This document shows positions 25,075-47,966 of a DNA stretch of 64,000 nt, one piece after another (the stretch's first letter is position 1; each line of letters begins with the position of its first letter). A program made the translations under genes and the position numbers. The stretch covers positions 669,613-733,612 of the forward strand of contig CAWGTX010000001.1 in assembly GCA_963825585.1 (NCBI GenBank). The letters run 5' to 3'. Source of the DNA: an uncultured bacterium. GTDB taxonomy: Bacteria; Actinomycetota; Acidimicrobiia; Spongiisociales; ZC4RG35. The notes under the pieces are model-generated. The model was given only the letters and a program-made list of their open reading frames with translations, was not told where the DNA came from and searched no databases.

Positions 25075-25102
25075 CAGCCAGCAGCCAGCAGCCAGCAGCC
25101 AG
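25075..25102. repeat. (CAGCCAG)4 heptamer tandem array, member of dispersed GCTGGCT-repeat family
   Basis: Exact 4x heptamer in the convergent intergenic region. Confidence 0.6.
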
Positions 25103-25116
25103 ATCCTTCCCTGGCG

Positions 25117-25956
25117 CTACTCCGGCGCTATTCCCCGATCGGCCGAGACCGCCAGGATGGCTCCGGCCACTGCGAGAGCGATGAAGGACACGCCTGCCGC
25201 AGCCTGACCGGAGCCGGCTACTGCCACGATCTGGGTGCCGGCGCCCACCACGACCAGTTGGGCGATCAGCCAGGCCCCCATCGGCGCCTTGGAGAAACGG
25301 TCGATCCCGAGGACTGACATGAGCGCCAGTCCCGACCAGGCGCCGAACACCGACACCACTCGGGGGGATCCGCCGTCCAGCGTTGCCCAGGCGGCGAGAC
25401 CGGCGAACGCACCCAGGGCGGGGCCGGTGAAGATCGGCTTTTCGCCGACGACTGCGGCGAGTGACAAGACGAGTGTGGCTCCGAGGAGGGCCCTGGCGAT
25501 CTCGGTGTCGGGAACGCTCGCCCACACGGCGAAGGCGGCGCCGCCGATGACGACACCGACCGTTCTCGGATCGGCTCTCCCGAATCTCCGAGGTCCCCAA
25601 ATCGCGGCGGTGGTGAACAGGGTCGATACGGCCACCGGCCAAACCACGGCGGGCCGCCAGGAGGTGTCGGCGATCACGAACGAGATCGACGCCGTGGACA
25701 CCTCGGACAGGACGGGACGGGCGAGCAGACCCGTGGTCAGGGCGAGGCCGACCGAGGCCAGTACCGGCAACGGATCGAACCTGCCGACGATGAACGTGGA
25801 ACCGCCCACGCCGACCAGCAGCGCGGCAGCACCAGTCCAGCCGATCCTGATCCGCGCCACGAGACCCACCACCAGGCAACCGATCGCCAGACCGAGGCCG
25901 AAGAGGAACCACCTGTCCGACGTGAGCGAAAGGAGGGTTGCGACTTCGTCGCTCAC
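25117..25956 (-). CDS. Hypothetical polytopic membrane protein
   Basis: Only the C-terminal ~280 aa of track ORF 25117..26784 is hydrophobic and protein-like; the remainder is antisense to lpdA. Proposed GTG start at 25956 (VSDEVATLL). Confidence 0.45.
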   Translation of the reverse strand: MSDEVATLLSLTSDRWFLFGLGLAIGCLVVGLVARIRIGWTGAAALLVGVGGSTFIVGRFDPLPVLASVGLALTTGLLARPVLSEVSTASISFVIADTSWRPAVVWPVAVSTLFTTAAIWGPRRFGRADPRTVGVVIGGAAFAVWASVPDTEIARALLGATLVLSLAAVVGEKPIFTGPALGAFAGLAAWATLDGGSPRVVSVFGAWSGLALMSVLGIDRFSKAPMGAWLIAQLVVVGAGTQIVAVAGSGQAAAGVSFIALAVAGAILAVSADRGIAPE

Positions 25957-26196
25957 GAGAACCCGACCAGGAACCAGATGGCTCCGGCGGCGAGGATCAC
26001 CAACGCCACGGCCGCGGCGGCCATCAAAAGGTATCGCGTCTGCACGCCGGGAGGCTACACGTCGTCTGCACAGCAGCCAGGTATCGGCTGCGGAGAGTGG
26101 TCGCTGCATTCGATTGCAGCGTTCGGATGGAAGGGTCACGATCGGCCCGTGACCCACTACCCTCTGGTGGGTAGTTCCCGAAAGGACGGATCGAGG

Positions 26197-27567
26197 GTGT
26201 ACGACATCGTGGTCGTCGGAGGTGGCCCTGGCGGGTACGCCTCGGCGCTGTACGCGCACAATTTCGGCTTGTCGGTCGCCCTCGTCGATGAGGAGCGTCC
26301 CGGTGGCACCTGCCTCATCCGAGGATGTATCCCCGCCAAACAGTGGATTCAGATCGCCGAGGTGTTCGCAACGGTTCGGCATGCCTCCGACTTCGGGGTG
26401 ATCACCTCCGAGCCCCAACTCGACTGGGATGCTGCCATCGCCAGGAAGAACCAGACGGTCGAGGGGCTGCTCAAAGGTCTGTCCGGTCTGCTGAAGCAAC
26501 GCAAGGTGGACGTGATCGACGGGTTCGGTCGCCTCGACGGTCCCGGCAAGGTGGTCGTTTCCGGGGCCGAGGGCGAGCGGACCGTGGCGGGTCGGGCGAT
26601 CATCATGGCCACCGGTTCGCATGCCCGCTCGATCCCGCCATATCCGGTGGACGGCGTTCGGATCGTGACGTCCGATCACGCCCTCGACTGGCCGGCCCGA
26701 CCCGACCGGGTCGCCATCGTCGGCGGCGGTGTGATCGGGTGTGAGTTCGCCAGTCTGCTCACAGACCTCGGCTCCGAGGTCCACGTGTTCGAGGTGATGG
26801 ACCAGATCCTGCCCGGCGGTGACCCCGATGCTGCGAAGCAGCTCGAGCGCCAGCTCTCACGCCGCGGCGTGAAGTTCCACGTCGGGATCGGGGTCGGCGA
26901 ACCGAAGGTCGGCGCCGGAGCTGTGGTGGTGCCGTTCGGCGACTCCTCGGTGGAGGTCGATGTCGTCCTCATGGCGGTCGGGCGTGGCCCCAACACCGCC
27001 AACGTGGGCTTCGATACCACCAAGGCGGTTGTCGACCGTGGCTTCGTCGTCGTCGATCTGGCGACCATGCAGACCGCCGAGCCGGGCGTCTACGCGGTGG
27101 GCGACATCGTGGCCGGCTCGCCCCAGCTCGCCCACGTCGCCTTCGCGGAGGCCATCGCCGCCGTGACCCACATCGCCACCGGGCGGCTGGCGTCGGTCGA
27201 TTACCGGGCGATCCCCCGGGTCACCTACACCCATCCCGAAGTCGCGGAGGTGGGCCTCACCGAGGCGCAGGCGCGCGAGTCGGGTGTCGAGGTGGAGGTC
27301 ACCAAACATGCCTTCAACGGTGTGGGCAGGGCGATCATCATCGGACAGAACCAGGGCTTCGTGAAGGTCATTGCCGAGAAGGATGGACCGATTCTCGGTG
27401 CTGCGGTGGTCGGCCCCCAGGCGGGGGAGATGATCCACGAGCTGATGTACTCGGTCGGGTGGGAGGCCCTCCCCTCCGAGGCCGCGGCATTCATCCACGC
27501 TCATCCCACCCTCTCGGAGGCCGTGGGGGAGACACTCATGGGCGCGGCCGGCAGGGCCCTGCACTGA
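26197..27567 (+). CDS. lpdA: Dihydrolipoyl dehydrogenase (E3)
   Basis: FAD motif DIVVVGGGPGGYASAL, redox disulfide GGTCLIRGCIPAK, C-terminal HAHPTLSEA dimerisation motif. GTG at 26197 preceded by AAAGGACGGA. Confidence 0.85.
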   Translation: MYDIVVVGGGPGGYASALYAHNFGLSVALVDEERPGGTCLIRGCIPAKQWIQIAEVFATVRHASDFGVITSEPQLDWDAAIARKNQTVEGLLKGLSGLLKQRKVDVIDGFGRLDGPGKVVVSGAEGERTVAGRAIIMATGSHARSIPPYPVDGVRIVTSDHALDWPARPDRVAIVGGGVIGCEFASLLTDLGSEVHVFEVMDQILPGGDPDAAKQLERQLSRRGVKFHVGIGVGEPKVGAGAVVVPFGDSSVEVDVVLMAVGRGPNTANVGFDTTKAVVDRGFVVVDLATMQTAEPGVYAVGDIVAGSPQLAHVAFAEAIAAVTHIATGRLASVDYRAIPRVTYTHPEVAEVGLTEAQARESGVEVEVTKHAFNGVGRAIIIGQNQGFVKVIAEKDGPILGAAVVGPQAGEMIHELMYSVGWEALPSEAAAFIHAHPTLSEAVGETLMGAAGRALH

Positions 27568-27586
27568 TTTCCAGGAGAGGTAGGCG

Positions 27587-29502
27587 ATGGCGACAACGGT
27601 GAGCATGCCCCAGTTGGGTGAGACGGTGACCGAAGGGACGATCCTTCGGTGGGCGAAGCAGGTCGGCGACACGATTTCGGCCGACGAGGTGCTGGTGGAG
27701 ATCTCGACCGACAAGGTCGACACCGAGGTGCCTTCGCCGGCGTCCGGTGTGGTGTTGGAGATCCTGGTCGCCGAAGGTGACACGGTGGCTGTGGGCACTG
27801 CCCTCGCCCTGATCGGTGAGGCCTCCGATGCGACCGGTGGCTATCCGAGTCCTGAACCCGAGCCCGCGAAGGCGCCCGCCCCGGCAGAGTCCGCCGCCCA
27901 GCCTGCCCCCGATTCGGCAGCAGCCACCGCTGCCGAGCCGGCGGCGCCGGCCCCCGCCCCGGAACCCCAACCCGCCGCTCAACCGGCCGCCTCAGCCCCC
28001 GCCGCCACCGTGACGATGCCCCAGTTGGGTGAGACGGTGACCGAAGGGACGATCCTTCGGTGGGCGAAGCAGGTCGGCGACACGATTTCGGCCGACGAGG
28101 TGCTGGTGGAGATCTCGACCGACAAGGTCGACACCGAGGTGCCTTCGCCGGCGTCCGGTGTGGTGTTGGAGATCCTGGTCGCCGAAGGTGACACGGTGGC
28201 TGTGGGCACTGCCCTCGCCCTGATCGGAGAGGCCTCGGGCTCGACCGGAGCTGCCCCCCAGCCGGCGCCCCCTGCCCCTGAGACAGCCCCCCAGCCGGCC
28301 TCCGAGCCGGCTCCCCAGGAGGCAGGGCCGACGCCCCCGTTCAGGGGGAGGGCCAGTCGTCGTCCCAGGCGGCGCCGTCAACCGAACCCTCGCCCGCCCC
28401 CGCCGCCGCATCAGGGGAAGGATCCGCTCCTGGGGGCCGTCTGCTGTCGCCGGTTGTCCGCCGACTCGTTCGCGAGAACGGCCTCGACGTCGATCGCATC
28501 CCCGGAACCGGCGAGGGTGGTCGCATCACCCGGAAGGACGTCGAGTCCTTCGTCGCTGCCGCCGCTTCCGCACCGGCGGCCTCGGCACCGGCAACTCAGA
28601 CTCCCGCCGCCGAGACCACCCAGCCTCCACCGGCCGAGGCGCCGGCTGCTGCTCCCGCCGCTCCTGCCGCCGAGTCGACTCCGGCAGCCGCTCCCGTAGC
28701 CTCTGTGTCTGCCCCGGCCTCGGTGCCGGCTCCGACGCCGGCCGCTCGCCCCACCCCGCCCACACCGGTGGCCGCATCGGGTGGCGACGAGACGGTCGAG
28801 TTGGACAGACTCCGGGTGCGTATCGGCGAGAACATGATCCGGGCCAAGCAGACCGCGGCCCACGTGTGGACCTCGGTGGAAGTCGACTACGAGCGGGTCG
28901 AGCGAGTTCGGCAGCGTCACAAGGACGCGTTCAAGGCCGCCGAGGGCTTCTCGCTCACGTACCTCCCGTTCATCGCCCGGGCCACCGTCGACGCCCTTCA
29001 GGAGTTCCCGGTGGTCAACTCGTCGTTCTACCTCGAAGAACGCAAGGCCGTGTTCCACAGGGCCGTGAATCTCGGCATCGCCATCGACCTCAACCAGAAG
29101 GGCCTGGTGGTGGCCTCGGTCAGGTCGTCCGACGGTCTCCGGCTCGTCGGGATCGCCCGCCAGATTCGCGCTCTGGCCGACAAGGCACGGGACGGGAAGC
29201 TCGACCCCGACGATGTGTCCGGCTCCACCTTCACCATCACCAACCCGGGGCCGTTCGGATCGTTCATGTCGGCGCCGATCATCAACGTCCCCAACACCGG
29301 CATTCTGTCGACCGAGACGGTCACCAAGCGACCGGCGGTCGTGACGGGCGCAGACGGTGAGGACGTGATCGCCATCCGTCACATCGGCTACCTGGGCCTC
29401 ACCTGGGATCACCGGGCCTTCGACGGCTCCACCGCCGTCCTGTTCCTACAGCGCATCAAGCAGAACCTGGAGAGTTGGGACTGGGAGCAAGAACTCGCCT
29501 GA
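27587..29502 (+). CDS. 2-oxoacid dehydrogenase E2 acyltransferase (two lipoyl domains, PSBD, catalytic domain), reading frame interrupted near 28330
   Basis: Lipoyl domains ([11 protein letters not shown]) in the 27587 frame. PSBD ([39 protein letters not shown]) and catalytic domain (DHRAFDG) continue in the frame of ORF 28705..29502. The frame change sits at a C5 run (gacgcccccgtt) and is repaired by one extra C. Confidence 0.8.
27605..28227 (+). repeat. Perfect 212-nt tandem duplication (27605-27816 and 28016-28227) encoding identical lipoyl domains
   Basis: 100% nucleotide identity between the two copies, offset 411 nt. The mirrored antisense ORFs 26857..27798 and 27979..28209 share an identical N-terminal peptide. 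Confidence 0.85.
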
Positions 29503-30060
29503 TGGCGAAGAGCTCCTATGTGGCCGAGATCCGATCGTTGGTCGGATCTGGCCCCTCATGCTGTCGTCTGCGGCGGCAGTGGTGCTGGACGAGGCCGGTC
29601 GCATCCTGCTGAGCCGCCATGAGGTCGGTGACCGATGAGTGATCCCGGGCGGCATCATCGATCCCGAGGAGAATCCGGCGCAGGGCCATGGTGCGAGAGG
29701 TGAAGGAGGAGACCGGCCTGGACGTGGTACCAGTCCGGCTGGTGGGTGTGGGGCGGCACACCGGAGCAATGGTCAGCTCGAGGCGATTCCCAAGTCGATG
29801 GCGGTGATCGCAGTCGTACTCGACGGAACCATCATCACCGCCTGTGGATCAACGCCACCTACAACGCCATCTCCGACGCCGATGGCAAGCCGTACCAGGT
29901 CGTCAAGTTCGCCTCGATCGAGTCCGCCAGGGAGGGCGACGCCGGGCGGCCTCGACCGCTGCATCGGCGGTCGACGATTCCTCCCAGGACACGACGGCAG
30001 AGGGCGCCGAGTTGCGGGCGATGGCAGACTGACGCTGTCATCCGGAGCGCCCCCTCCTGC
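29502..30060 (+). pseudogene. NUDIX hydrolase pseudogene (at least 3 frameshifts)
   Basis: Nudix-box pieces spread across three frames: [17 protein letters not shown] / PLMLSSAAAVVLDEAGRILLSRHEVGDR / VIPGGIIDPEENPAQ / MVREVKEETGLDVVPVRLVGVWGG. The ATG overlaps the E2 stop (TGATG). Confidence 0.5.
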
Positions 30061-30194
30061 GACGTAGTACCCGCCCGGGTCCTGATGAGGTGTCGAGTTC
30101 CTGGGCTTCGCGTTCCCTGCTGAGACCGTCTGGGGTCCCGACCGACGATTGCACGCTGCCTTCCCATGTGACCGCAGTCGGGCATAGTGACGGG

Positions 30195-31559
30195 GTGCGC
30201 GTCGTTCTGGCTTCACTCACAGTGCTGTCGCTCATGTCCGTTGCAGGTCAGGCGGCCGCTGACGACTACCCGTCCGGCCGTTTCGATGATGACGACCGCC
30301 ACCCGGCCGAGGTGGCGATGAACGTCCTCGCCGACTGGGGCGTCGTCGACGGGTGCAACCCGCCGGCCAACACCCACTCGTGTCCGGACTCGTCGGTCAC
30401 CAGGGCCGAGGCGGCCAAGATCGTGGTCGAGATCGGTGAGTTCACCGGAGGGCTACTGGAGGGCGGTGGCGGCGAGACTGATCGTTTCGTCGACGACGGA
30501 GAGGCGCTCGGTGGCGGTGCGGAGCGATACTTCGAAACACTGGCCGGCATCGCTGCGCTCCATGGTTGCGATCCGCCCACCAACAGACGCGTCTGCCCCG
30601 ATCGAGGGGTCACACGGGGCCAGATCGCCAAGATTCTCGTCGCCGCCTACGGACTCGAAGCACCCGCCGACCACGACGCTCCCTGGGCCGACATCAACGG
30701 GGAGTTCTACGCCGATGCCGCTCGCATCGCCTCCTACCACGGGATGTGGGACGAGCGTTCCCGCTTCGACGGTCACCAGCGTGCGACCCGCGGCGAGCTG
30801 GCGACGGCAGCGCTCGAGGCCTCCGGGACGACGGTGTGCCGCCCAGACCCGTTCACCCAGGCCCACGTGGCCGAATTGGAGGATCGGTATCCGGGAAAGC
30901 TGATCACCGCCCACGTCTACGACACCAGGACCGGATGCCACTACCGGCTCTCGCACGACAATCGCCAGCGCACGGCATCGGTGTTCAAGGTGATGGTGAT
31001 GGCGGGCACGCTCCTGGAAGCACAGGACGACGGACGTGCCGTGTCCACCTGGGAGCTGAGCCAACTGGATCCCATGATCACCGAATCGGCCAACGGTCCG
31101 GTCCGCTCGCTTTGGTACTCGTTCGGTGCGGCACCCTGGTACCGCAATCAGGGTCGAATCTTCGGACTGGAGGACACCACGGTCCGCGGCGACGACGGCA
31201 GCGCCTGGGGCCTCACCACCACGTCGGCTGCCGATCAGGTCGACCTGATCCGGCAGGTTCTCCTCGGAGACTGGGGTCCTCTTTCCGCCGAGTCGCAGGC
31301 CCTTGCGATCGACCTCATGACCGACGTGGTGCCCAGCCAGACCTGGGGCGTGACCGCCGGAGTCCCAGACGGATGGACCGTCGCCCAGAAGAACGGCTTT
31401 GCGGGCATCACCATCAACTCGGTCGGCTGGGTCGACGAACCGGGGTCCAGCAACGGTTACGTGGTCGCCATCCTGAGCCAGGGATGGCCCGATCACCCCA
31501 GCGGCATCGCGGCTGTGGAGCGAGTCAACCGGTGGGTGGCGGAGGCGATGACGGAGTGA
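30195..31559 (+). CDS. Secreted protein: N-terminal SLH-like repeats fused to class A beta-lactamase-like / serine-hydrolase (PBP-like) domain
   Basis: Signal VRVVLASLTVLSLMSVAGQAAA (GTG 30195, uncertain). SLH-like repeats (GVVDGCNPPANTHSCPDSSVTRAEAAKIVV; ALHGCDPPTNRRVCPDRGVTRGQIAKILV). Serine-hydrolase motifs SVFK (SxxK), SAN (SxN) and KNG (KTG-like). Confidence 0.6.
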   Translation: MRVVLASLTVLSLMSVAGQAAADDYPSGRFDDDDRHPAEVAMNVLADWGVVDGCNPPANTHSCPDSSVTRAEAAKIVVEIGEFTGGLLEGGGGETDRFVDDGEALGGGAERYFETLAGIAALHGCDPPTNRRVCPDRGVTRGQIAKILVAAYGLEAPADHDAPWADINGEFYADAARIASYHGMWDERSRFDGHQRATRGELATAALEASGTTVCRPDPFTQAHVAELEDRYPGKLITAHVYDTRTGCHYRLSHDNRQRTASVFKVMVMAGTLLEAQDDGRAVSTWELSQLDPMITESANGPVRSLWYSFGAAPWYRNQGRIFGLEDTTVRGDDGSAWGLTTTSAADQVDLIRQVLLGDWGPLSAESQALAIDLMTDVVPSQTWGVTAGVPDGWTVAQKNGFAGITINSVGWVDEPGSSNGYVVAILSQGWPDHPSGIAAVERVNRWVAEAMTE

Positions 31560-31560
31560 A

Positions 31561-31679
31561 GCTGCTGGCTACTGGCTTCTAGCTGCTGGCCCGGACTCAC
31601 AACGAGAGAAGGTGCTCTAGCGGCCAGCTCGTCGCTCGTCGTGCAAAACCCAGGAGCCAGCAGCCAGCAGCCAGTAGCC
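31561..31679. repeat. Intergenic repeat element with inverted (GCTGGCT)n-type arms (GCTGCTGGCTACTGGCTTCTAGCTGCTGGC ... CCAGGAGCCAGCAGCCAGCAGCCAGTAGCC)
   Basis: The two arms are near reverse complements of each other, placed between the beta-lactamase-like gene and lipB. Confidence 0.5.
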
Positions 31680-31719
31680 GATTCGCCGCTATCTCTCGCA
31701 TCGTGGTACCAATCGGGCT

Positions 31720-33396
31720 GTGAGTACCACTCTGAGGGTTCGTTGGCTGGGTCGGCTTCCGTACAAGGAGGCGTGGGATCTCCAACGCGCCATTCACGAA
31801 GGGCGGGTAGGCGGCCGGACCGCTGACGACTACCTGCTACTGCTCGAACATCCGCATGTCTACACCATCGGGCGCAACGGCAACGGGTCGAACCTCCTGA
31901 TCGACGAGGCGGACCTTGGTGACATCGGCGCCGAGATCCACCGGGTGGATCGTGGGGGTGACATCACCTATCACGGTCCCGGTCAGCTGGTCGGATACCC
32001 GATCATCCAACTCGACAATCCGATGCAGGTGGTGCCGCACGTCCGGCGGCTGGAAGAGGTGCTGATCGCCACCCTGGCCGAGTGGGGGATAGCGGGCTGG
32101 CGGGAAGAGGGACTGACCGGAGTGTGGACCGAGCGTGGAAAGGTCGCCGCCATCGGCGTGCGCGTGGCCCGCCAGGTCACGATGCACGGGTTCGCGCTCA
32201 ACCTCGATCCCGACATGGCGTACTTCCAGCGGATGAACCCATGCGGGATCGCAGATCGACCCGTGACCTCCGTCGCGGAGCTGCTGGGGAGCCGGATCTC
32301 ACTCGAGGAGGCCACCGAGACGCTCATCCCGCAGTTCGCCCGGGTCTTCGGTGCCGGACAGCCCGAGGTCCAGAAGGCCGCGTTCGTACGCGGCCAGGGC
32401 CGCCAGCGTGAGTTCGAGGTCGACCGCCTCCTGGCCGACGGGACGTTCTCGCTCGAGAAGCGAACGGCCGAACCGGTGCTCATCAGCGGTCGGCTCCCGG
32501 GAGAGCCGGCGAGGCCGGATTGGATGAAGGTGACCGCCCGGATGGACGGCGACTATCTCGAGCTCAAGAAGATGATGCGGGGCATGGAGCTGCACACCGT
32601 CTGCGAGGAGGCGGGTTGTCCGAACATCTTCGAGTGCTGGGGGATGGGCACCGCCACGCTCATGATCCTCGGGGACAAGTGCACCCGGGCCTGTTCGTTC
32701 TGCAATGTCACCACGGGGCGGCCCACCGAACTCGACGTGATGGAGCCGTTCCGGGCCGCCGGTGCCGTCGCCTCGATGAACCTCAAACATGCCGTCATCA
32801 CCTCGGTCAACCGTGACGACCTCGACGACGGCGGTTCAGGCATCTTCGCCCAGACCATCGCAGAGAGTCGTCGGCGTTCTCCGGGAACCGACATCGAGGT
32901 CCTCATCCCCGACTTCAAGGGGGAAGTCGAGCCGCTCGAGACGTTGATGGCGGCCCGACCGGACGTCCTCAACCACAACACCGAGACGGTGTTGCGACTC
33001 CAGCGCGACATCCGGACGTCGGCCAACTATGGGCGATCGTTGGCGCTGCTGGCGAGGGCGCGCTGGCTCAATCCCGACGGCCTGACCAAGTCGGGGCTGA
33101 TCGTCGGGATGGGTGAAAGCGACGAGGAGGTCCTGGGGACTCTGGCCGATCTGAGGGCGGTGGGGGTCGACATCATCACCATCGGGCAGTACCTGCGGCC
33201 GACAGCACGTCACCGTCCCATCCACCGGTACGTCCACCCGGATCAGTTCGCCCGGTTCAAGGAGTACGGCGAGGCGATCGGTATTCCCCACGTCGAGTCG
33301 GGCCCATTGGTCCGGTCCAGTTATCACGCCAAGGACTCGGTCGAGCGGCTGACACCCGACCGACAATTCACACCAGTGACCATCGGAAGGCGCTGA
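31720..33396 (+). CDS. lipB-lipA: Octanoyltransferase LipB fused in-frame to lipoyl synthase LipA (single 558-aa ORF)
   Basis: The N-terminal ~220 aa is LipB (RVDRGGDITYHGPGQLVGYPI). The C-terminal ~320 aa is LipA (CEEAGCPNIFEC and radical-SAM CTRACSFC). About 50 aa of linker joins them, with no in-frame stop between. Confidence 0.75.
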   Translation: MSTTLRVRWLGRLPYKEAWDLQRAIHEGRVGGRTADDYLLLLEHPHVYTIGRNGNGSNLLIDEADLGDIGAEIHRVDRGGDITYHGPGQLVGYPIIQLDNPMQVVPHVRRLEEVLIATLAEWGIAGWREEGLTGVWTERGKVAAIGVRVARQVTMHGFALNLDPDMAYFQRMNPCGIADRPVTSVAELLGSRISLEEATETLIPQFARVFGAGQPEVQKAAFVRGQGRQREFEVDRLLADGTFSLEKRTAEPVLISGRLPGEPARPDWMKVTARMDGDYLELKKMMRGMELHTVCEEAGCPNIFECWGMGTATLMILGDKCTRACSFCNVTTGRPTELDVMEPFRAAGAVASMNLKHAVITSVNRDDLDDGGSGIFAQTIAESRRRSPGTDIEVLIPDFKGEVEPLETLMAARPDVLNHNTETVLRLQRDIRTSANYGRSLALLARARWLNPDGLTKSGLIVGMGESDEEVLGTLADLRAVGVDIITIGQYLRPTARHRPIHRYVHPDQFARFKEYGEAIGIPHVESGPLVRSSYHAKDSVERLTPDRQFTPVTIGRR

Positions 33397-33450
33397 TGGT
33401 TGACGATCCGGGCACACGATGAGGTGGCGAACAGTGGAAGGAGCGACAGA

Positions 33451-33480
33451 GGTCCTGTCGTCGGAGCGGTCGACAGGACC
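33451..33480 (+). terminator. Candidate stem-loop terminator downstream of lipB-lipA (10-bp perfect stem GGTCCTGTCG/CGACAGGACC)
   Basis: Perfect inverted repeat with a 10-nt loop, 55 nt after the lipA stop; no U-tract. Confidence 0.35.
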
Positions 33481-33716
33481 AGCAGGGGCAGGTCCGACAT
33501 CCCTGTCCGCTGAACCTCGATGAACAGGCGGTGACAGAGCGCACGGAATGATTCTCGGCGGACCGAAGGGCGTGGAACATCCGCCCATCGTGGATGTGTC
33601 GTATACGACGTATCGACCTATTGTCGAGCCGTCGCGGCGTCGCCTGGGTGGAGGGTTGGCACCAGGTTCTACCAGCGGTTTGAGGTCATTTGAGAAGGGG
33701 GAGAGGGGCTCATCGG

Positions 33717-35829: not shown

Positions 35830-35906
35830 TCGCGGTCGGGAGCCTGGTCGGCAGCCCCACAGATTCCCAGACGAGTCATCGTGCTCGGTCCACCTAGGAT
35901 CGAGGA

Positions 35907-36995: not shown

Positions 36996-37007
36996 CGCCC
37001 TTGGCGT

Positions 37008-39021: not shown

Positions 39022-39089
39022 CGATTCTCCTCAGGGTGACCAGCTCGAGCGGAGTGCGGCGAAGACCGCTGCGATGTAGACGGCGGTGG

Positions 39090-41152: not shown

Positions 41153-41751
41153 GACCGCCCCGTCCGGGCTGCCGCAATCGTGGCGGGCATCTCGGCGAGG
41201 ATCAGATACAGGAGGTAGGTGGCCAACGCAGCGAAGACCATGACTCCGCCGGCTTCGAGGGCGTCGGAGCCGAAACGGTCGAACAGGCTGGCTCGGCCCG
41301 CCGCGCCGGCCGACCCGGCTGCAAGCGCGAGGTTCACGACGACATGGCTACGGGTGGGGGGCGTGTCCCGTTTCCCGAAGCACCCGCAGCTCTGGATCGG
41401 CAGGTCCCGACGAAGCGCCCAGGCGACGAAACCGGCGAACCCGACGTAGAGGGACGCCACCGCCAGGCCCGCCGCCGGATGTGGGGTGACCAGGGCCGAC
41501 GCGCCCGCCGCGATCTCGACGAGACCCAGCGCGGTGACAGCCGCGCGGTTCGCAGGCAGACGGGCAGCACGAAGCGCACCCGTGGTTGGGCCCCCGTCCG
41601 CCAGTTTGGCTCCCCCGCTCAGGATCAGCAGCAAGGCTGCGATCACGAGCATGCTTTCCAGCAGCATCGTGACGAGGCTAGTCCAAGCGGTGGGGGAAGC
41701 GACCACACGTTCAGAACGTCGCTGGGCGGTCGCTTCATCCTTCTGGCGCAT
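41149..41751 (-). CDS. MauE/DoxX-family redox-associated membrane protein (CGC motif)
   Basis: TM-rich protein with the SCGCFG motif. Candidate ATG starts at 41751, 41667 and 41652; the track start at 41955 is probably too long. Confidence 0.6.
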   Translation of the reverse strand: MRQKDEATAQRRSERVVASPTAWTSLVTMLLESMLVIAALLLILSGGAKLADGGPTTGALRAARLPANRAAVTALGLVEIAAGASALVTPHPAAGLAVASLYVGFAGFVAWALRRDLPIQSCGCFGKRDTPPTRSHVVVNLALAAGSAGAAGRASLFDRFGSDALEAGGVMVFAALATYLLYLILAEMPATIAAARTGRS

Positions 41752-41797
41752 CTCCGACGTTCGGATACTGTGTGGACCGGGAACAAGGGAGCGGATC

Positions 41798-42739
41798 ATG
41801 AAGACACTCGTCACCGGCGGCGCCGGTTTCATCGGATCGAACATCGCGCGCGCACTACTCGAACGGGGCGACGAGGTGCGGATCATCGACGACTTCGCCA
41901 CCGGGCGGCGCCAGAACGTCGAAGGGCTCGACGTCGAACTCATCGAGGCCACCATCGAGGACCCCGAGGCGGTGGCGCGAGCCGTCGAGGGAGTCGAGGT
42001 GGTGTTTCACCAGGCCGCCCTCCCCAGCGTGAAGCGAAGCGTGGACAACCCTGCTCGGACGCACTCGGTCAACGCCACCGGGTCGCTCAACGTCTTGAAC
42101 GCCGCCCGCATGGCCAACGTCAGGCGGGTCGTGTACGCCTCGTCATCGAGCGCATACGGCAACACCCCCACGCTCCCAAAGCACGAAGGTATGGTCACGG
42201 CCCCTCTCTCGCCGTACGCCGTCGCCAAGCTGGCAGGCGAGCAGTACTGCAAGGCATTCGCCCATGTCTACGATCTCGAGACGGTGGCTCTGCGCTACTT
42301 CAACGTGTTCGGGCCCCATCAGGACCCCACCAGCCACTATTCGGCGGTGATCCCGCTGTTCACCACCGCCCTCCTCGAGGGGCGAGCGCCAGTCATCCAC
42401 GGCGACGGCGAACAGACCCGCGACTTCACCTACGTCGACAACGTGATCCAGGCGAACTTGAAGGCGGCCGCCGCCGACTCCCGGTCCTCAGGCGAGGCAA
42501 TGAACATCGCCTGCGGTTACCGCGTCAGTCTCAACCAGCTGCTGGTGGCCATCGGCGAGACGCTCGGGAACACCGACTACCAGGTCACCCACACCGAGAC
42601 CCGTGCCGGCGACGTACGCGACTCACTCGCCGACATCTCCAAAGCCCGCGACCTCATCGGCTACGAACCCACCGTCCTGCTCGAAGAGGGTCTGAAGAAG
42701 ACGGTCGAGTGGTTCGTGGGAGCGGGCGCGAACGCGTAG
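41798..42739 (+). CDS. NAD-dependent nucleotide-sugar epimerase/dehydratase (UDP-GlcNAc/UDP-Glc 4-epimerase-like, extended SDR)
   Basis: MKTLVTGGAGFIGSNIA Rossmann motif and catalytic YAVAK (YxxxK). ATG at 41798 preceded by AAGGGA. Confidence 0.85.
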   Translation: MKTLVTGGAGFIGSNIARALLERGDEVRIIDDFATGRRQNVEGLDVELIEATIEDPEAVARAVEGVEVVFHQAALPSVKRSVDNPARTHSVNATGSLNVLNAARMANVRRVVYASSSSAYGNTPTLPKHEGMVTAPLSPYAVAKLAGEQYCKAFAHVYDLETVALRYFNVFGPHQDPTSHYSAVIPLFTTALLEGRAPVIHGDGEQTRDFTYVDNVIQANLKAAAADSRSSGEAMNIACGYRVSLNQLLVAIGETLGNTDYQVTHTETRAGDVRDSLADISKARDLIGYEPTVLLEEGLKKTVEWFVGAGANA

Positions 42740-42888
42740 TTGACCCAGGGGGGACGACCCCCCTGACCCCCCGCCGGTTGTGGTGGTGCGGCACTCGCGT
42801 GGTGGGCCGGGGTGTTCAACAGGCCGCGCATACGTTTGCCACGTGGAGCGACGAGCTGCGAGCTGCGAGCGAAACCTTGGCTGCTGGC

Positions 42889-43077
42889 TGCTGGCTGCTG
42901 GCTGCTGGCTGCTGGCTGCTGGCGAAGAGTCGTCCGAAGCAGCGCGAAAGGGGCTGGGTCGACCGCTCCGGCGTGAGGACCGCTGCCGCTCTGCCCCATC
43001 TGTCGCGGCTTCGCTGCGCTTCCGGGCGTTCTGCGTTCTGCGTCTGGCTGGCAGCTGGTAGCTGGTAGCTACCAGCT
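42889..43077. repeat. Intergenic repeat element: (CTGGCTG)4-5 array at 42889-42916 and 11-bp-stem palindrome AGCTGGTAGCT-GGT-AGCTACCAGCT at 43053-43077
   Basis: Exact heptamer array. Perfect hairpin overlapping the stop of the convergent CysQ gene. Confidence 0.6.
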
Positions 43078-43849
43078 ACTTCGTGATCTCCTGAACCGCT
43101 TCCATCAGCGCTCCATTCGTTGCGAGGAAGCCTGTCAGGAGTGGGTCGGGGCGGTTGAAGCGGGGTTGTGTTCCGTCGAGGAATCGCACCTGGCCGCCAC
43201 CGGCCACCACCAGGGCGGCACCGCCGACCACGTCCCACTCGTTCTTGGGGACCAGGGTCCAGGTGGCGTCGGCCAGGCCTGCAGCCACCAGGCCGAGTTT
43301 GTAGGCGACCGAGCCCATGTTGCGGACTGAGACCGGGGTACGGAAGAAGCGGTCCCACTCACCCCGCTTGACTTCGCTGCGGCTGGCGAGCACGAGTGCG
43401 CCGTCGATCGACCGGGTGGATGTGACGCCGGCCGGCTGACCGTTCAGCGTGACCCCGTGGCCAACCGCACCGAGGATGAGGTGGTTGGGCCCGGGCGCCA
43501 GGATGCCCCCGGCGACCGGGAGACCGTCCTCGACCAGCCCGATGGAGACGCACCACTCCGGGATGCCGTCGACGAACTCGCGGGTGCCGTCGAGCGGATC
43601 TACCACCCACACCCGGGAACACTCGAGGCGGCCCACGTCGTCGGCGGTCTCCTCGGAGAGCCATCCTTCTCCCGCCTCGAGCAGGGACTCCTTCATGATG
43701 GCGTCGATGAGGATGTCGGCCTCGGTCACCGGATCGCCCCCGGCCTTTGCGGAGGCGGCCACCGAACCCGCCGTGAACGACTGGAGGGCGGATCCGGCGC
43801 GCGTGAGCGCCGCCTCGATGCGGTCCAGATCCTTGGTGTACTTGCTCAT
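43076..43849 (-). CDS. cysQ: Inositol-monophosphatase family protein, probable 3'(2'),5'-bisphosphate nucleotidase (CysQ-like PAP phosphatase)
   Basis: WVVDPLDGT and WDVVGG motifs. Lies next to the cysDN-cysC genes and a sulfate-type transporter. Confidence 0.65.
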   Translation of the reverse strand: MSKYTKDLDRIEAALTRAGSALQSFTAGSVAASAKAGGDPVTEADILIDAIMKESLLEAGEGWLSEETADDVGRLECSRVWVVDPLDGTREFVDGIPEWCVSIGLVEDGLPVAGGILAPGPNHLILGAVGHGVTLNGQPAGVTSTRSIDGALVLASRSEVKRGEWDRFFRTPVSVRNMGSVAYKLGLVAAGLADATWTLVPKNEWDVVGGAALVVAGGGQVRFLDGTQPRFNRPDPLLTGFLATNGALMEAVQEITK

Positions 43850-43862
43850 CTCACTCCAGGTT

Positions 43863-45629
43863 TCACGAGGGCCAGAACAGTGGCACGGCCACCACGATCG
43901 TCGTGACCATCACGACGGTGAGTGGCGCGCCCAGACGGACGTAGTCGGAGAACCGGTAGCCGCCGGGGCCGTAGACCATCGTGTTGGTCTGGTACCCGAT
44001 CGGTGTGAGGAACGACGCAGATGCTGCCACGGCGACAGCGATGGCGGCGCCCCGTGCGTCCAGACCGGCCGGCCCCGCTGCCGCCATCGCAATGGGGAAC
44101 ATGAGGAGTGCGGCGGCGTTGTTGGTGACGAGCTCAGTGAGAACCACGGTCGCCAGCACCAACCCGAGCAGCACTCCGGTGGGACCGAGCGGATCGAAGA
44201 TCGACGTGAGGGCGCCGGCGAGCACCTCGGCCAAGCCCGACGATTCGACAGCGGCCGCCAACCCGAATGCGGCGGCGATGACGCCGATCACCTCGAGGTC
44301 GACGGCCCGTCGGGCCTCGTCGGGTGAGAGGATCCGGAGCGCGATCAGGAGCAGCGATGCCACCAACGAACCCTGCAGGATCGGGACGACCCCAAGCGCC
44401 GCCAGCGTCACGAGGCCCACGAGCAGCAGCCCCACGATCTTGGCGTTCCGCGACGTGATGGGAGGCGTGGCGTCCATCTCGGCAACCAGGATGAAGTCGA
44501 GACGGTGCCGCCACCGATCACGGAAACCCGGATCGGCGATCACGATGAGCGTATCACCCACGCGGAGTGGAACGGTGCCGAGCTTGGCGTCGACCAGTTG
44601 TCCGGATCGGGAGATGGCGAGCACCGCAGCCTGGTAGCGGCTCCGAAAACCGACGTCGACCAGTGTGCGTCCGACCAGGGGCGACTCGGCCCCGATCACC
44701 GCCTCGAAGTACCGCACCATCGGGTCGAGGCTGAGCACGTGTTTCTCCTCCGCCGAACGCAGCCCTTTCATCGACCGGAGGTCCAGCACTTCGTCGGCCC
44801 GACCCACGAATCTCAGGCGGTTCTCACCACGAAGAACCGTCTCCGGGCGGACCGGAGCGATGACCGTGTCGCCCCGGTCCACCGCGGCCAGGAACACTGC
44901 GTTCAGGTGGCGGAGTCCGGCTTCCTCGACGGTCGAGCCATCCATGGGGCCGCCGGTCTCGACGACCATTTCCACGGTGAAGCGGTTCGAGTCTTCGATC
45001 AGCCCCTCGCGCACCGAACGGCGGGGCGGAAGCACCCTCGGAGCCAGGGCAACAACGAGGATGGTCCCCACCACGGCCACGGGGAGACCGACCTTTCCGA
45101 TCTCGAAGAAACCGATCGGGTCGAGTCCGGCTGCATCCATCTGGCCGGAGATCACGAGGTTGGTGGAGGTGCCGATCACGGTCATGACCCCGCCGAGGAT
45201 GGCCGCGAACGACAGCGGCATGAGTAACTTCGACGGCGAGATACCGCGGCGTTCCGCCCACGCCGAAACCTGGGGCGCCAGCATCGCCACGATCGGCGTG
45301 TTGTTGAGGAATCCCGACACGAGAACCGTGGGTGTCAGCAGCCTGAGAAGCGGTCTCCGGAGCACGCCCCGCTCCCCGAGCGTCTTTCGCACGAGCGGTG
45401 ACAGGGCCCCGGTCTTGTCGACCGACGCGGCGAGCACGTAGAGAGCCGCCACCGTGATCGGCCCCGGATTCGAGAACCCCGAGAATGCCTGCCCGACATC
45501 GATGACTCCGATGACGAGCAATGTGACCGTGCCGGCGAAAACGGCCGTGGCGGGAGACGTCAGATCACGCACCAGTGCCACGAGCACGGCGGCGACGACG
45601 AGAAGGGTGAACCAGGCATCAGGAGTCAT
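43863..45629 (-). CDS. SLC13/DASS family anion transporter with two central TrkA-C (RCK_C) domains; putative sulfate permease
   Basis: 588-aa ORF with N- and C-terminal TM repeats flanking two RCK_C-like domains (...GRTLVDVGFRSRYQAAVLAISRSG...). Confidence 0.75.
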   Translation of the reverse strand: MTPDAWFTLLVVAAVLVALVRDLTSPATAVFAGTVTLLVIGVIDVGQAFSGFSNPGPITVAALYVLAASVDKTGALSPLVRKTLGERGVLRRPLLRLLTPTVLVSGFLNNTPIVAMLAPQVSAWAERRGISPSKLLMPLSFAAILGGVMTVIGTSTNLVISGQMDAAGLDPIGFFEIGKVGLPVAVVGTILVVALAPRVLPPRRSVREGLIEDSNRFTVEMVVETGGPMDGSTVEEAGLRHLNAVFLAAVDRGDTVIAPVRPETVLRGENRLRFVGRADEVLDLRSMKGLRSAEEKHVLSLDPMVRYFEAVIGAESPLVGRTLVDVGFRSRYQAAVLAISRSGQLVDAKLGTVPLRVGDTLIVIADPGFRDRWRHRLDFILVAEMDATPPITSRNAKIVGLLLVGLVTLAALGVVPILQGSLVASLLLIALRILSPDEARRAVDLEVIGVIAAAFGLAAAVESSGLAEVLAGALTSIFDPLGPTGVLLGLVLATVVLTELVTNNAAALLMFPIAMAAAGPAGLDARGAAIAVAVAASASFLTPIGYQTNTMVYGPGGYRFSDYVRLGAPLTVVMVTTIVVAVPLFWPS

Positions 45630-45683
45630 GAGACGAAGCTACGGTCTAGCAGCTCTCGCCATTTCGGATATCCTGTGCTGCTC

Positions 45684-46589
45684 ATGTCGTACCAGCTGGA
45701 CCACCTGCGCGCGCTCGAAGCCGAGTCGATCCACATCATCAGGGAAGCAGTGGCCGAGGGCGAACGCCCCGTGCTGCTGTTCTCCGGGGGCAAGGACTCG
45801 GCTGTCGTTCTGCGCCTCGCCGTCAAGGCGTTTCACCCTGCCCGCCTTCCGTTTCCGGTCATGCACGTCGATACCGGGCACAACTTCCCCGAGGTGATCG
45901 AGTTCCGCGACCGAACCGTCGCCGAGCTCGGCTGCACCCTCATCGTCGCCTCCGTACAGGAGTCGATCGATGCGGGTCGTGTCGTCGAGGAGACCGGCCC
46001 CCGGGCCAGTCGCAATCGACTCCAAACCGAGTCGCTGCTCTCGGCGATCGAGGAGAACCAGTTCGACGTCGTGTTCGGGGGTGCCCGGCGTGACGAGGAG
46101 AAGGCCCGTGCCAAGGAGCGGGTGTTCAGCTTCCGGGACGACTTCGGTCAGTGGGATCCGAAGAACCAGCGGCCCGAGCTTTGGAATCTCTACAACGCCC
46201 GCCATCGCAAGGGTGAGCATCTCCGGGTGTTCCCGATCTCGAACTGGACCGAGATGGACATCTACCAGTACATCCTCGACGAGCAGATCGACCTTCCGTC
46301 GGTGTACTTCTCCCACACCCGCCGTGTGTTCGAGCGGGACGGCATGCTCATGGCCGAGAACCCCCATCTCACCCTCATGGACAGCGAAGAGATCTTCGAG
46401 CGGGTGGTGCGGTTCCGCACGGTTGGCGACATGACCTGCACCGGCGCATTCGAATCGGTCGCCGCCAACATCGAGGACATCATCATCGAGGTGGCGGCCA
46501 GCCGTGTCACCGAACGTGGCGCCAGCCGGGCCGATGACAAGACGACCGAGGCCGCCATGGAGGATCGCAAGCGTGAGGGGTATTTCTAG
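45684..46589 (+). CDS. cysD: Sulfate adenylyltransferase subunit 2
   Basis: PAPS-reductase-fold PP-loop LFSGGKDSAVVL. Alternative GTG start at 45675. Confidence 0.9.
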   Translation: MSYQLDHLRALEAESIHIIREAVAEGERPVLLFSGGKDSAVVLRLAVKAFHPARLPFPVMHVDTGHNFPEVIEFRDRTVAELGCTLIVASVQESIDAGRVVEETGPRASRNRLQTESLLSAIEENQFDVVFGGARRDEEKARAKERVFSFRDDFGQWDPKNQRPELWNLYNARHRKGEHLRVFPISNWTEMDIYQYILDEQIDLPSVYFSHTRRVFERDGMLMAENPHLTLMDSEEIFERVVRFRTVGDMTCTGAFESVAANIEDIIIEVAASRVTERGASRADDKTTEAAMEDRKREGYF

Positions 46590-47870
46590 ATGACGCCCGA
46601 GATCTCCCAGCGGATGGAACTCGTCCGCCTCGCCACCACCGGCTCGGTGGACGACGGCAAGTCGACTCTCATCGGTCGACTGCTGTACGACACCAAACAG
46701 ATCTTCGAAGACCAGATGGAGGCGATCGAAGAGGCCTCCAGGCGACGGGGCACCGACTACGTCGACCTGGCGCTGCTCACCGACGGACTCCGGGCCGAAC
46801 GCGAACAGGGCATCACCATCGATGTCGCCTACCGGTACTTCGCCACGCCCAAACGGAAGTTCGTGCTGGCCGACACCCCCGGACACGTCCAGTACACCCG
46901 CAACATGGTGACGGGTGCATCGACGGCCGATATCGCCCTCATCCTCATCGACGCTCGCAAGGGCATCCTCGAGCAGACGCGTCGCCATTCGTTCATCGCC
47001 TCGCTCCTCCAGGTGCCCCACCTGGTGCTGTGCGTGAACAAGATGGACCTGGTCGATTACAGCGAGGAGCGGTACGACGAGTTGGTGGAGGAGTTCCGCC
47101 AGTTCGCCACCCGCCTCGACATCACCGACCTGCGTTTCGTGCCGGTGTCGGCGCTGGTGGGTGACAACATCGTCGACGAGAGCCTCAACACCCCGTGGTA
47201 CAAGGGCCCATCGGTCCTCCACCTTCTCGAGGACATCCACGTGGGTAGCGACCGAAACATGATCGACTGCCGGTTCCCGGTGCAATATGTGATCCGTCCC
47301 CACACGATGGAGCATCAGGACTACCGGGGCTATGCCGGGCAGATCCAGGGTGGGGTCTTCAAGAAGGGCGACGAGGTCATCGTGCTGCCCGCCGGATTCA
47401 CCACCAGGATCGCATCGATCGACACGTTCGACGGTCCTGTCGAAGAGGCGGCGCCGCCGGCCTCGGTGGTGATCCGGCTCGAGGACGAGATCGACATCAG
47501 CCGCGGCGACATGATCTGTCGCCCCCACAACCAGCCGCACGTCGGCCAGGATCTCGACGCCATGGTCTGCTGGCTGTCGGACACGGCAACGCTGCGTCCT
47601 GGCGCCAAGTACGCCATCAAGCACACGAGCCGTTGGGCCCGTGCGATGGTCAAGGACGTCCAGTACCGGCTGAACATCAACACGCTGCATCGCGACGAGG
47701 AGGCCGATTCGATCGGGCTCAACGAGATCGGCCGGATCCGTCTCCGGACCACCGTGCCGATGTTCTTCGACGAGTACCGCCGCAACCGTGACACCGGATC
47801 GTTCATCCTCGTCGACGAGGCCACCAACAACACGGTGGGAGCGGGCATGATCACCGGGCCAGCGGTCTGA
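46590..47870 (+). CDS. cysN: Sulfate adenylyltransferase subunit 1 (GTPase), not fused to APS kinase
   Basis: G1 GSVDDGKSTL, G3 DTPGH, G4 NKMD. Starts 1 nt after the cysD stop. Confidence 0.9.
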   Translation: MTPEISQRMELVRLATTGSVDDGKSTLIGRLLYDTKQIFEDQMEAIEEASRRRGTDYVDLALLTDGLRAEREQGITIDVAYRYFATPKRKFVLADTPGHVQYTRNMVTGASTADIALILIDARKGILEQTRRHSFIASLLQVPHLVLCVNKMDLVDYSEERYDELVEEFRQFATRLDITDLRFVPVSALVGDNIVDESLNTPWYKGPSVLHLLEDIHVGSDRNMIDCRFPVQYVIRPHTMEHQDYRGYAGQIQGGVFKKGDEVIVLPAGFTTRIASIDTFDGPVEEAAPPASVVIRLEDEIDISRGDMICRPHNQPHVGQDLDAMVCWLSDTATLRPGAKYAIKHTSRWARAMVKDVQYRLNINTLHRDEEADSIGLNEIGRIRLRTTVPMFFDEYRRNRDTGSFILVDEATNNTVGAGMITGPAV

Positions 47871-47878
47871 GAATGCAG

Positions 47879-47966
47879 GCTGCTAGCTGCTGGCTTCTGG
47901 CTGCTGGCTGGAAGCCAGGGGCGGCGAGCAGGAGCGTCTCTGGCTGGTAGCTGGTAGCCAGTAGCT
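47879..47966. repeat. Intergenic repeat element of the GCTGGCT family (arms GCTGCTAGCTGCTGGCTTCTGGCTGCTGGCTGG ... CTGGCTGGTAGCTGGTAGCCAGTAGC) between cysN and cysC
   Basis: Same motifs as the elements at 25075, 31561 and 42889. Confidence 0.5.

Follow-up and report, generated by a model that had tools for sequence, protein, structure and literature searches.

Intergenic heptanucleotide arrays at gene 3' ends in an uncultured lineage of Acidimicrobiia: probable hypervariable tandem repeats of a known class

The original work on short tandemly repeated heptanucleotides (STRRs) reportedly concerned heterocystous cyanobacteria, and we describe here head-to-tail arrays of GCTGGCT/CAGCCAG and other 7-nt units in a 64-kb stretch of contig CAWGTX010000001.1 from an uncultured bacterium of the class Acidimicrobiia (hereafter the window, meaning the whole stretch analysed). 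By a later account (PMC4692102), heptanucleotide arrays have been recorded in bacteria since 1990; the same account cites three tandemly repetitive heptanucleotides in Calothrix PCC 7601 and an excess of heptamers among bacterial simple sequence repeats, noted in 2007 together with a polymerase-slippage hypothesis. Nostoc carries GGGGA(C/T)T arrays (PMC4692102), and its tRNA-Leu intron contains a base-paired heptanucleotide hairpin whose copy number differs between strains (PMC3488679). The GGGAATC repeats of Xanthomonas (Rehm et al. 2015; PMC4692102) are intergenic, transcribed and capable of forming stem-loops, with 70-75 convergent paired arrays per genome; they keep the same gene context in related species while varying in length and sequence, and G-quadruplex formation has been demonstrated for them. 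TAACTGA repeats occur in Beggiatoaceae, cyanobacteria and Bacteroidetes (MacGregor 2015, PMC4679880), four-fold heptanucleotide elements in Geobacter metallireducens (PMC2700814), and regulatory roles of the Nostoc heptamer repeats have been the subject of speculation in a preprint (bioRxiv 10.1101/2022.06.06.494920). We found no mechanistic explanation of bacterial heptamer arrays in the literature from 2016 on. Among dispersed extragenic repeats of other kinds, REPINs are doublets of repetitive extragenic palindromic (REP) sequences that form hairpins, contain an invariant 16-mer and are moved by REP-associated tyrosine transposases (RAYTs) (PMC3116915).

Our analysis suggests that the arrays of the window are probably heptanucleotide tandem repeats of this known class, hypervariable and slippage-driven, and not REP sequences or MITEs (miniature transposable elements with inverted repeats). 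Spacers were defined by frame analysis of third-codon-position G+C content (GC3) and by Pfam-supported genes. Within 23 kb, four spacers are taken up by head-to-tail GCTGGCT/CAGCCAG arrays and their GCTGGTA variant, which occur in both orientations: sites A (~25.1 kb), B (~31.6 kb), C (~42.9 kb) and D (~47.9 kb), a fifth array spacer lying at ~12 kb. Tandem Repeats Finder detected 14 period-7 arrays in the window, 13 of them intergenic and spread over the five spacers. Each of these spacers adjoins the 3' end of a gene; three are convergent and two co-directional, and there is no divergent one. The distance from stop codon to array is 1-14 nt at sites A, B and D. Matches to GCTGGCTGCTGGCT (two units, at most 2 mismatches) number 17 in the window, all within the spacers of sites A-D, against a chance level of 0.52 ± 0.70, and none of 100 dinucleotide-preserving shuffles reached 17. 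A strict census (at least 3 near-perfect copies) found six arrays of period 7 in the window and none of period 6 or 8-12, and a looser count found 14 of period 7 vs 1, 3 and 3 of periods 8, 10 and 11. Lag-7 autocorrelation is 0.41-0.52 in the five array spacers vs 0.16-0.32 in 13 other spacers, and the array spacers alone peak at both lag 7 and lag 14. Further heptamer arrays (CGAGCTG, GCGTTCT/AGAACGC and GCTCGTC) are found inside the GCTGGCT spacers. Several marks of the heptanucleotide class are present, namely a 7-nt head-to-tail unit in three or more copies, a mainly intergenic location, an excess of period 7 and, among close relatives, variation in length and sequence within the same gene context.

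A sequence-only reading of the window had placed GCTGGCT/CAGCCAG motifs at five sites and described a dispersed intergenic family, in both orientations, in short convergent or 3' spaces. The motifs are indeed there, as tandem arrays, and their positions bear out that description (convergent spacers 25010-25116 and 42740-43075, co-directional spacers 31560-31719 and 47871-47989). The arrays are real; the five sites come down to four GCTGGCT spacers, since 42860 and 42889-43077 belong to one. That no family could be named is understandable for actinobacteria, but the class is known in other phyla as heptanucleotide tandem repeats (PMC4692102, PMC4679880, PMC2700814, PMC3488679). The refuting alternative offered in that reading, codon-level low complexity of the Ala/Ser type, is excluded because the arrays lie outside GC3- and Pfam-supported genes, beyond coding frames, and because a 7-nt period cannot keep a reading frame. 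The GCTGG motif could also be read as Chi-like. CRISPR repeats and iterons were rejected on period and location. So were the heptameric direct repeats of Streptomyces antibiotic regulatory protein (SARP) sites, which lie 11 nt apart in the promoter region (see PMC5930380), since the units here are contiguous at a 7-nt period and downstream of stop codons; a scan of positions 24000-43999 found no promoter-like sites. Searching the whole window against Rfam 15 at the gathering score returned no match.

The behaviour of the arrays can be followed at syntenic loci of relatives (numbered L119 and so on; L119 and L212 belong to the same genome), with the caveat that their copy numbers derive from metagenome assemblies, in which arrays can be collapsed or broken. 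The cysN/cysC spacer holds 5.3 copies of a GCTGGCT-type unit in the window, 11.4 copies of AGCTACG in L120/L122, whose CysN is 97% identical to that of the window, and 12.6 vs 4.6 copies of AGCTTCG in L123 and L124, which encode an identical CysN protein (98% identical to that of the window). The right-hand degenerate array of the same spacer is orthologous in the window, L120/L122, L123 and L124; at site D its counterpart in L123/L124 is the CTAGCTAGTCGCTAGTAGCCAG array, and three units in a row differ by one and the same G/A change, which is concerted evolution within an array. The epimerase/cysQ spacer measures 336 nt in the window and 153 nt in L120-L122, where it carries only (GAGCTRC)x4.9, the orthologue of the CGAGCTG array of site C. 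In L123/L124 this spacer has instead a 104-nt inverted GCTGGCT/AGCCAGC pair with a 53-nt core, and in L119 (91% CysN identity) it is reduced to 26 nt made of (ACGTAAT)x5.4. This last array (L119 6433-6470) overlaps the last epimerase codons and supplies the TAA stop of the epimerase gene, which shows that a coding sequence can be invaded at its 3' end by a growing array; the spacer is convergent. The orthologue of site B has no array in L212, and in L210/L211 a GCTGGCA-type array adjoins the same conserved GATTCGCCGCTATCTC in the orientation opposite to that of the window. Turnover at orthologous spacers is gradual and not the presence or absence of a discrete element.

The arrays also have a sharp phylogenetic boundary. 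They are present in the window, L119/L212, L120-L124 and L210/L211, that is, at CysN identities of 91% and above, and almost none occur at 88% and below: the relatives L125-L128 (88, 86 and 82% identical) have two weak period-7 arrays in 74 kb, and their cysN and cysC genes overlap by 4 nt or stand 11 nt apart. The near-lack of arrays in these more distant relatives, taken with the fast change of unit and copy number in close ones, argues that the arrays are a clade-specific addition to spacers with rapid turnover. The longest arrays seen in the clade, (TCCAGTC)x13.9 followed by (GACCCAA)x7.7 at L119 569-729 (= L212 14947-15099), fill the entire convergent spacer between a peptidase M24 gene and an S-layer-homology (SLH) protein gene. 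A contig ends inside an array at L121 10640-10678, and the same is seen at the IMG/VR loci L161, L166-L168, L171, L172 and L181; because contigs often end inside heptamer arrays, where assemblies evidently break or collapse, copy numbers from short-read assemblies are unreliable.

The mechanism that we favour would work as follows. The arrays occupy non-coding spacers starting at, or a few bases from, stop codons, where a 7-nt period would be tolerated because there is no reading frame to keep. They would expand, contract and be homogenised by slipped-strand mispairing during replication or repair, as we infer from the turnover of copies and units in near-identical relatives and from the same substitution in successive units. 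Segments of arrays would also pass by copying from one spacer of a genome to another, ectopic recombination or template switching being the probable route, given that variant patterns are shared between loci. Where forward and reverse arrays surround a short core, a long imperfect hairpin is the predicted fold of the transcript or of single-stranded DNA. We think that the unit sequence has no specific function. As for the hairpins, the cell may tolerate them or draw some mild benefit from them as 3' barriers or processing sites, without their being canonical terminators. Whatever favours period 7 is lineage-specific: arrays are found in this clade and are nearly absent in its sister relatives.

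Several observations weigh against an explanation by slippage. It relies on copy numbers from assemblies, which can collapse or break in arrays, as the contig end in L121 illustrates. Local slippage alone does not account for one unit in four spacers vs other units in the orthologous spacers of relatives, for the variant units shared between loci, or for a two-array composite found both at window 11944-12028 and at L210 3760-3851 between unrelated flanking genes. The sharp presence and absence of arrays between sister clades suggests a specific trans-acting determinant, which the slippage model leaves unnamed. Finally, a mirrored A/T variant in the arms of site B would also fit selection for structure, and so would the persistence in every orthologue of some hairpin-capable sequence past the epimerase stop.

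Predicted RNA folds, scored as z values against shuffled sequences, bear on this last point. The inverted pair of site B reaches -66.2 kcal/mol (z -3.88, none of 200 shuffles as good), the whole spacer of site D z -2.86, and the palindrome region of site C z -2.4 on the plus strand and -3.1 on the minus strand. The inverted arms around a ~50-nt core that had been noticed from the letters alone are thus a feature of some copies, with a core of ~60 nt and long predicted hairpins at sites B and D, and the perfect 11-bp stem reported there is the 11+11 palindrome of site C. This is a true GCTGGTAGC-type palindrome and the only one, so palindromes do not recur as had been described; the units at 47943-47966 give a short CTGG-TAG-CCAG hairpin. 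The proposal to fold each copy gave no significant structure at site A (25074-25102; z +0.6 and +0.1, no better than shuffles) or in the left half of site C (42846-42995, with the GCTGGCT and CGAGCTG arrays; z +0.27). In the relatives, the L123 inverted pair in the epimerase/cysQ spacer folds at z -5.67 and the (AGCTACG)n array of L120 folds on itself at z -2.5; the cysN/cysC spacers of L124 and L119 fold no better than shuffles.

Such folds could mean that hairpins past the stop codon, in RNA or single-stranded DNA, are themselves selected (for protection of mRNA 3' ends, for pausing or termination without a U-tract, or as RNase III sites), heptamer arrays being the easiest way for the lineage to build and adjust stems. 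Every array site is at a gene 3' end, and in a crude census with crude gene calls arrays occupy ~21% of convergent and co-directional spacers vs 9% of divergent ones. The A variant in the second left unit of site B (GCTACTG) is matched by T in the right arm (CAGTAGC), so that the outer 11 nt of the stem are perfectly complementary. The sequence following the epimerase stop is a G6/C6 hairpin in the window and in L120, the inverted pair in L123 and the nearly self-complementary (ACGTAAT)n in L119. We nevertheless regard selection for hairpins as unlikely to be the origin of the arrays. Neither partner nor significant fold exists for site A or for the left half of site C, and the same lack of fold is seen in the cysN/cysC spacers of two relatives. 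Stems occur at site B, at site D and at the right-hand end of site C, but none is followed by a T-run, nor is there one at any site (scan of 24000-43999; sequence reading at 47.9 kb). The two terminator-like matches in 24000-43999 are not at repeat sites, which leaves the terminator function once proposed for these hairpins without a canonical intrinsic terminator at any site. Site D lies inside the cysDNC operon, and relatives whose genes overlap there need no hairpin. Units built around 4-nt palindromes or self-complementarity were rejected, as palindromic tetramers (0.406 vs 0.407 ± 0.044 in shuffled units) and mean self-complementarity (3.58 vs 3.72 in shuffles) are at the shuffle level. 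When arrays within 200 nt of each other were paired at the (GCTGGCT)3 loci of many phyla (inverted meaning the complement, with at most 1 mismatch per unit), inverted pairs made up only 24 of 78 among the matches listed, with a median gap of 53 nt, and direct pairs 2 of 78.

The relation between loci is the ground on which a mobile element has to be judged. An all-against-all comparison of the five window spacers found similarity in the arrays only, and no unique or conserved non-repetitive core common to them. Within the arrays the resemblance is detailed. Variant units GGCTTCT and CTAGCT are common to the left arms at sites B and D (30 nt, 90% identity); the head of the GCTGGCA/GCTGGTA array of site C, TCTGGCTGGCAGCTGGTAGC (43043-43062), recurs at 47939-47958 in site D, the stretch thus shared by the right ends of the two sites reading TCTGGCTGG[C/T]AGCTGGTAGC; and the L210 array begins with the same TCTGGCTGGCAGCTGGT as these right ends. 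Likewise, the AGAACGC pair of site A matches site C at 43026-43043 in reverse orientation (18 nt, 94% identity), and the GCTCGTC array in the core of site B matches the GAGCTGC-type region of site C (13 nt, 100% identity). Since arrays at different loci share variant units, they appear to be related by copying. The composite mentioned above consists of a CCGTTCA-type array followed, ~25 nt on, by (ACAACGTAGAACGT)2; its two occurrences share 30 nt at 97% identity, and the L210 genes that flank it have no homologue in the window. A metagenome scan for this second family with CAACGTAGAACGTNCAACGTAGAACGT gave one match, on a heptamer-rich contig of 64% G+C (L213), where the composite occurs as an inverted pair (7506-7668) just upstream of a gene start.

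These facts could be read as traces of a small non-autonomous element of REPIN or MITE type, an inverted pair with its core being moved in trans and single arrays being decayed remnants. The GCTGGCT-type unit in four nearby spacers and both orientations, the variant patterns common to several loci, the composite between non-homologous genes and the recurrence across phyla of hairpin-forming, REPIN-like inverted arms ~50-70 nt apart (PMC3116915) would all suit such an element, as would ~197 nt present at site C in the window and missing from L120. Yet this extra segment has array sequence at both ends and no duplication, and neither the flanks in the window nor the comparison of site C with L120 revealed target-site duplications, terminal inverted repeats or clean insertion boundaries. 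A REPIN has a conserved imperfect-palindrome unit and a fixed doublet distance, whereas arm lengths and gaps vary here; a MITE has terminal inverted repeats around a conserved interior and a target-site duplication, which we do not find. Arm length and unit vary continuously among close relatives. No transposase, RAYT or reverse transcriptase was found among 40 window open reading frames (ORFs) scanned against Pfam, and no RAYT/Y1 transposase in the gene lists of the relatives' loci. Moreover, arbitrary control heptamers form arrays too (see below), which no single transposase specificity would explain. A mobile element is therefore distinctly unlikely, and the REP/MITE-like character first given to the repeats is not supported: reading the flanks for target-site duplications, as had been recommended, found none, arrays without core or transposase are all that the loci share, and turnover in relatives is gradual.

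Heptanucleotide arrays are by no means confined to this lineage. (GCTGGCT)3 was found in at least 118 genome stretches from many phyla, several metagenome-assembled genomes (MAGs) having many loci each; the hosts listed include Streptomyces, Planctomycetota, Gemmatimonadota, Acidobacteriota, Bacteroidota, Chloroflexota, Cyanobacteria, Omnitrophota, Proteobacteria and others, and the loci listed also hold many heptamer arrays of unrelated sequence. In IMG/VR, (GCTGGCT)3 occurs on 22 contigs and three composition-matched control heptamers on 32, 12 and 3, so that GCTGGCT as a uniquely favoured unit is unsupported; since the controls also form arrays, the GCTGGCT unit is not special, common as heptamer arrays are in general. 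Two octamer controls occur on 9 and 3 contigs, too few for a firm statement on period. One control unit, GGTCGCT, forms arrays of up to 32 non-overlapping 21-nt matches (L154). A specific determinant is suggested by the clade boundary, taken with the fact that the same units, and inverted pairs separated by ~53 nt, recur across phyla. Instead of a passive by-product of slippage, the arrays might be the footprint of a dedicated, horizontally transferable activity that makes 7-nt tandem duplications at spacer hairpins and copies them from locus to locus. Examples would be an enzyme that advances in 7-nt steps (a polymerase, a repair enzyme or one resembling a reverse transcriptase) or a hitherto unrecognised mobilisation system acting on inverted pairs. 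We consider this quite improbable; if it were true, the Acidimicrobiia clade would provide a natural on/off comparison in which the presence and absence of genes could point to the determinant. Least probable is that the arrays are binding sites for a DNA- or RNA-binding protein (a global regulator, or one of nucleoid or RNA-chaperone type), a role proposed earlier, with no binding protein named, for TAACTGA, the Geobacter elements and Nostoc heptamers upstream of recF and recO (PMC4679880, PMC2700814, bioRxiv 10.1101/2022.06.06.494920): exact reiteration of one unit at several loci and the position of several sites beside sulfate-assimilation genes (cysQ, cysN/cysC, a sulfotransferase) would agree with it, but orthologous spacers at 97-98% CysN identity carry other units or no array, GCTGGCT has no strand preference relative to flanking genes (20:20 in co-directional and 9:10 in convergent spacers, ~60 arrays listed, crude gene calls), copy number is apparently unconstrained (4.6 to 12.6), and the arrays are found where genes end, neither promoters nor start codons being their place.

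The features of the five spacers are collected in Table 1. At site A, the array is single, lacks an inverted partner and stands 14 nt past the stop of a minus-strand membrane-protein gene. The left arm of site B begins 1 nt after the TGA of a beta-lactamase-like gene, and the two arms (31567-31590 and 31656-31679) are 92% complementary over 24 nt. At site C, the CysQ-like gene on the minus strand has its TAG stop (43076-43078) within the palindrome. The left array of site D begins 4 nt after the cysN stop, and in the fifth spacer the AACGGTG array is an imperfect reverse complement of the TTCACGG array. A stem-loop, CAGGGGGG-ACGA-CCCCCCTG, is located at 42746-42765, 7 nt after the epimerase stop; L120-L122 keep it, L123/L124 and L119 lack it and have heptamer arrays adjoining the epimerase stop instead, and it may be the real 3' hairpin of the epimerase gene.

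Table 1. Heptamer arrays and associated features in the five array spacers (window coordinates; a dot marks features given without strand).
Spacer	Feature	Position	Strand	Source
Fifth (11941-12335)	(TTCACGG)x2.4 then (ACAACGT/AGAACGT)x4.3	11955-12028	+	
Fifth (11941-12335)	(AACGGTG)x3	12174-12194	+	
A	Two units, AGAACGC/TGAACGC	25020-25033	+	Sequence reading
A	GCAGCCA x4.1, 100% matches (GCTGGCT read as CAGCCAG on +)	25074-25102	-	Tandem Repeats Finder
B	Left arm, GCTGCTG-type x4.3, variants GCTACTG and GCTTCTA	31561-31590	+	Tandem Repeats Finder
B	Core, ~59 nt between arms	31591-31649	.	Sequence reading
B	Core array (GCTCGTC)x2.1	31627-31641		Tandem Repeats Finder
B	Right arm, CCAGCAG x4.3, inverted vs left arm	31650-31679	-	Tandem Repeats Finder
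C	(CGAGCTG)x2.7	42852-42870	+	Tandem Repeats Finder
C	Perfect (GCTGGCT)x6.6 (TGGCTGC x6.6, 100% matches), longest in window	42878-42923	+	Tandem Repeats Finder
C	(GCGTTCT)x2.6	43026-43043	+	Tandem Repeats Finder
C	(GCTGGCA/GCTGGTA)x3.4	43047-43070	+	Tandem Repeats Finder
C	Perfect 11+11 palindrome (22 nt), GTAGCTGGTAG/CTACCAGCTAC, 100% complementary	43058-43079	.	
D	Left array, TGCTGGC x5.3	47874-47910	+	Tandem Repeats Finder
D	Right array, (GCTGGTA)x3.4, ends in CCAGTAGC	47943-47966	+	Tandem Repeats Finder

The genes around the arrays are ordinary chromosomal ones. The window has 66% G+C, and the closest CysN and LipB-LipA homologues with a source name are proteins of Acidimicrobiia MAGs. The convergent array spacers separate a sulfotransferase gene from a YciI-like gene (fifth spacer), an SLH-protein gene from a membrane-protein gene (A) and the epimerase gene from the CysQ-like gene (C); the co-directional ones lead from the beta-lactamase-like gene to LipB-LipA (B) and from cysN to cysC within the cysD-cysN-cysC operon (D). 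Sulfate assimilation is represented by cysD-like, cysN, cysC and cysQ-like genes, a sulfate symporter and sulfotransferases, and other genes encode pyruvate/2-oxoacid dehydrogenase E3 and E2, a LipB-LipA fusion, SLH proteins, ATP-binding cassette (ABC) transporters and glycoside hydrolases. The sulfate-symporter gene (CitMHS/Na_sulph_symp, 43863-45629) lies between the cysQ-like gene and the cysD-like gene of the 3'-phosphoadenosine-5'-phosphosulfate (PAPS) reductase family; it is present in the window, L119 and L127 and absent in the closest relatives L120-L124. The LipB-LipA fusion is a single 558-aa ORF (31720-33396) joining an octanoyltransferase with a LipB-type catalytic domain to a radical S-adenosylmethionine lipoyl synthase, a combination conserved in thousands of database proteins, many named Acidimicrobiia. 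In L210, IS21-family (IstA/IstB) and ISL3-family transposase genes (4229-8155) adjoin heptamer-bearing spacers. They replace the gene that in the window stands upstream of LipB-LipA, and the GCTGGCA array of L210 is inverted relative to the right arm of site B. The E2 acyltransferase gene is apparently in two frames (lipoyl domains 27587-28699, catalytic domain 28705-29502), while its L212 counterpart is a single 611-aa gene (6152-7987); the split (27587-29502) reflects a frameshift or else a fault of assembly in the Ala/Pro-rich linker, where 9- and 12-nt repeats occur. Repeats of other periods occur farther along the window: a period-11 repeat, GGTGTCTACTC x3.2 (55305-55339), runs across the 3' end of a sugar-ABC solute-binding-protein gene and the adjoining spacer, and a period-10 repeat, GAACGAGGCA x2.7 (56949-56975), lies within the 5' part of a LacI-type regulator ORF as called here.

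These arrays would come as no surprise to a specialist in bacterial repeats. What they add is an extension of the heptanucleotide class, with new units, to an uncultured actinobacterial lineage, and a documented case of very fast turnover at orthologous spacers, by unit replacement, copy-number change and arrays that supply stop codons. The sharp boundary between heptamer-rich and heptamer-poor relatives is a concrete starting point for comparative genomics. For annotation and assembly, it is relevant that such hypervariable spacers break assemblies and that they should not be labelled terminators, REPs or MITEs.

Comparison with the described systems shows both resemblances to and differences from each. 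Like the STRRs of Calothrix and Nostoc, the arrays are head-to-tail 7-nt units, mostly intergenic and of several unit families; the STRRs occur at many loci per genome, and here the GCTGGCT unit occupies four spacers of the 64-kb window. Unlike the STRRs, the arrays belong to another phylum, and their units (GCTGGCT, GCTGGTA, GAGCTGC, AGAACGC, AACGGTG) are not G-quadruplex forming. The Xanthomonas GGGAATC repeats are likewise intergenic and arranged in inverted pairs, and their restriction to one genus in its class resembles the clade restriction seen here, but one dominant G-rich quadruplex unit is found there and several coexisting non-quadruplex units here, and unit replacement is apparently faster here, to judge from relatives with 97-98% CysN identity. 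In the Nostoc tRNA-Leu intron, degenerate repeats on both sides of a loop pair with each other, the same architecture as in site B and the L123 spacer, and strain differences consist of copy number and indels; that hairpin, however, is a single locus inside a group I intron, whereas the present arrays are dispersed over 3' intergenic spacers. The TAACTGA and Geobacter elements also place one 7-nt unit at many loci in distant groups, as does (GCTGGCT)3 in many phyla, yet TAACTGA lies just upstream of start codons with nearly all repeats direct, and the Geobacter elements have a fixed four copies and are also intragenic, in contrast to the variable copy number, position after stops and both orientations observed here. 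REPINs, finally, share with these arrays the extragenic location, the two inverted arms with a short spacer that make a long hairpin, the dispersal and the occurrence of singlets alongside doublets; they differ in having conserved REP arms at a fixed distance, where here there are variable arrays without a core and no RAYT was seen in the ORFs scanned.

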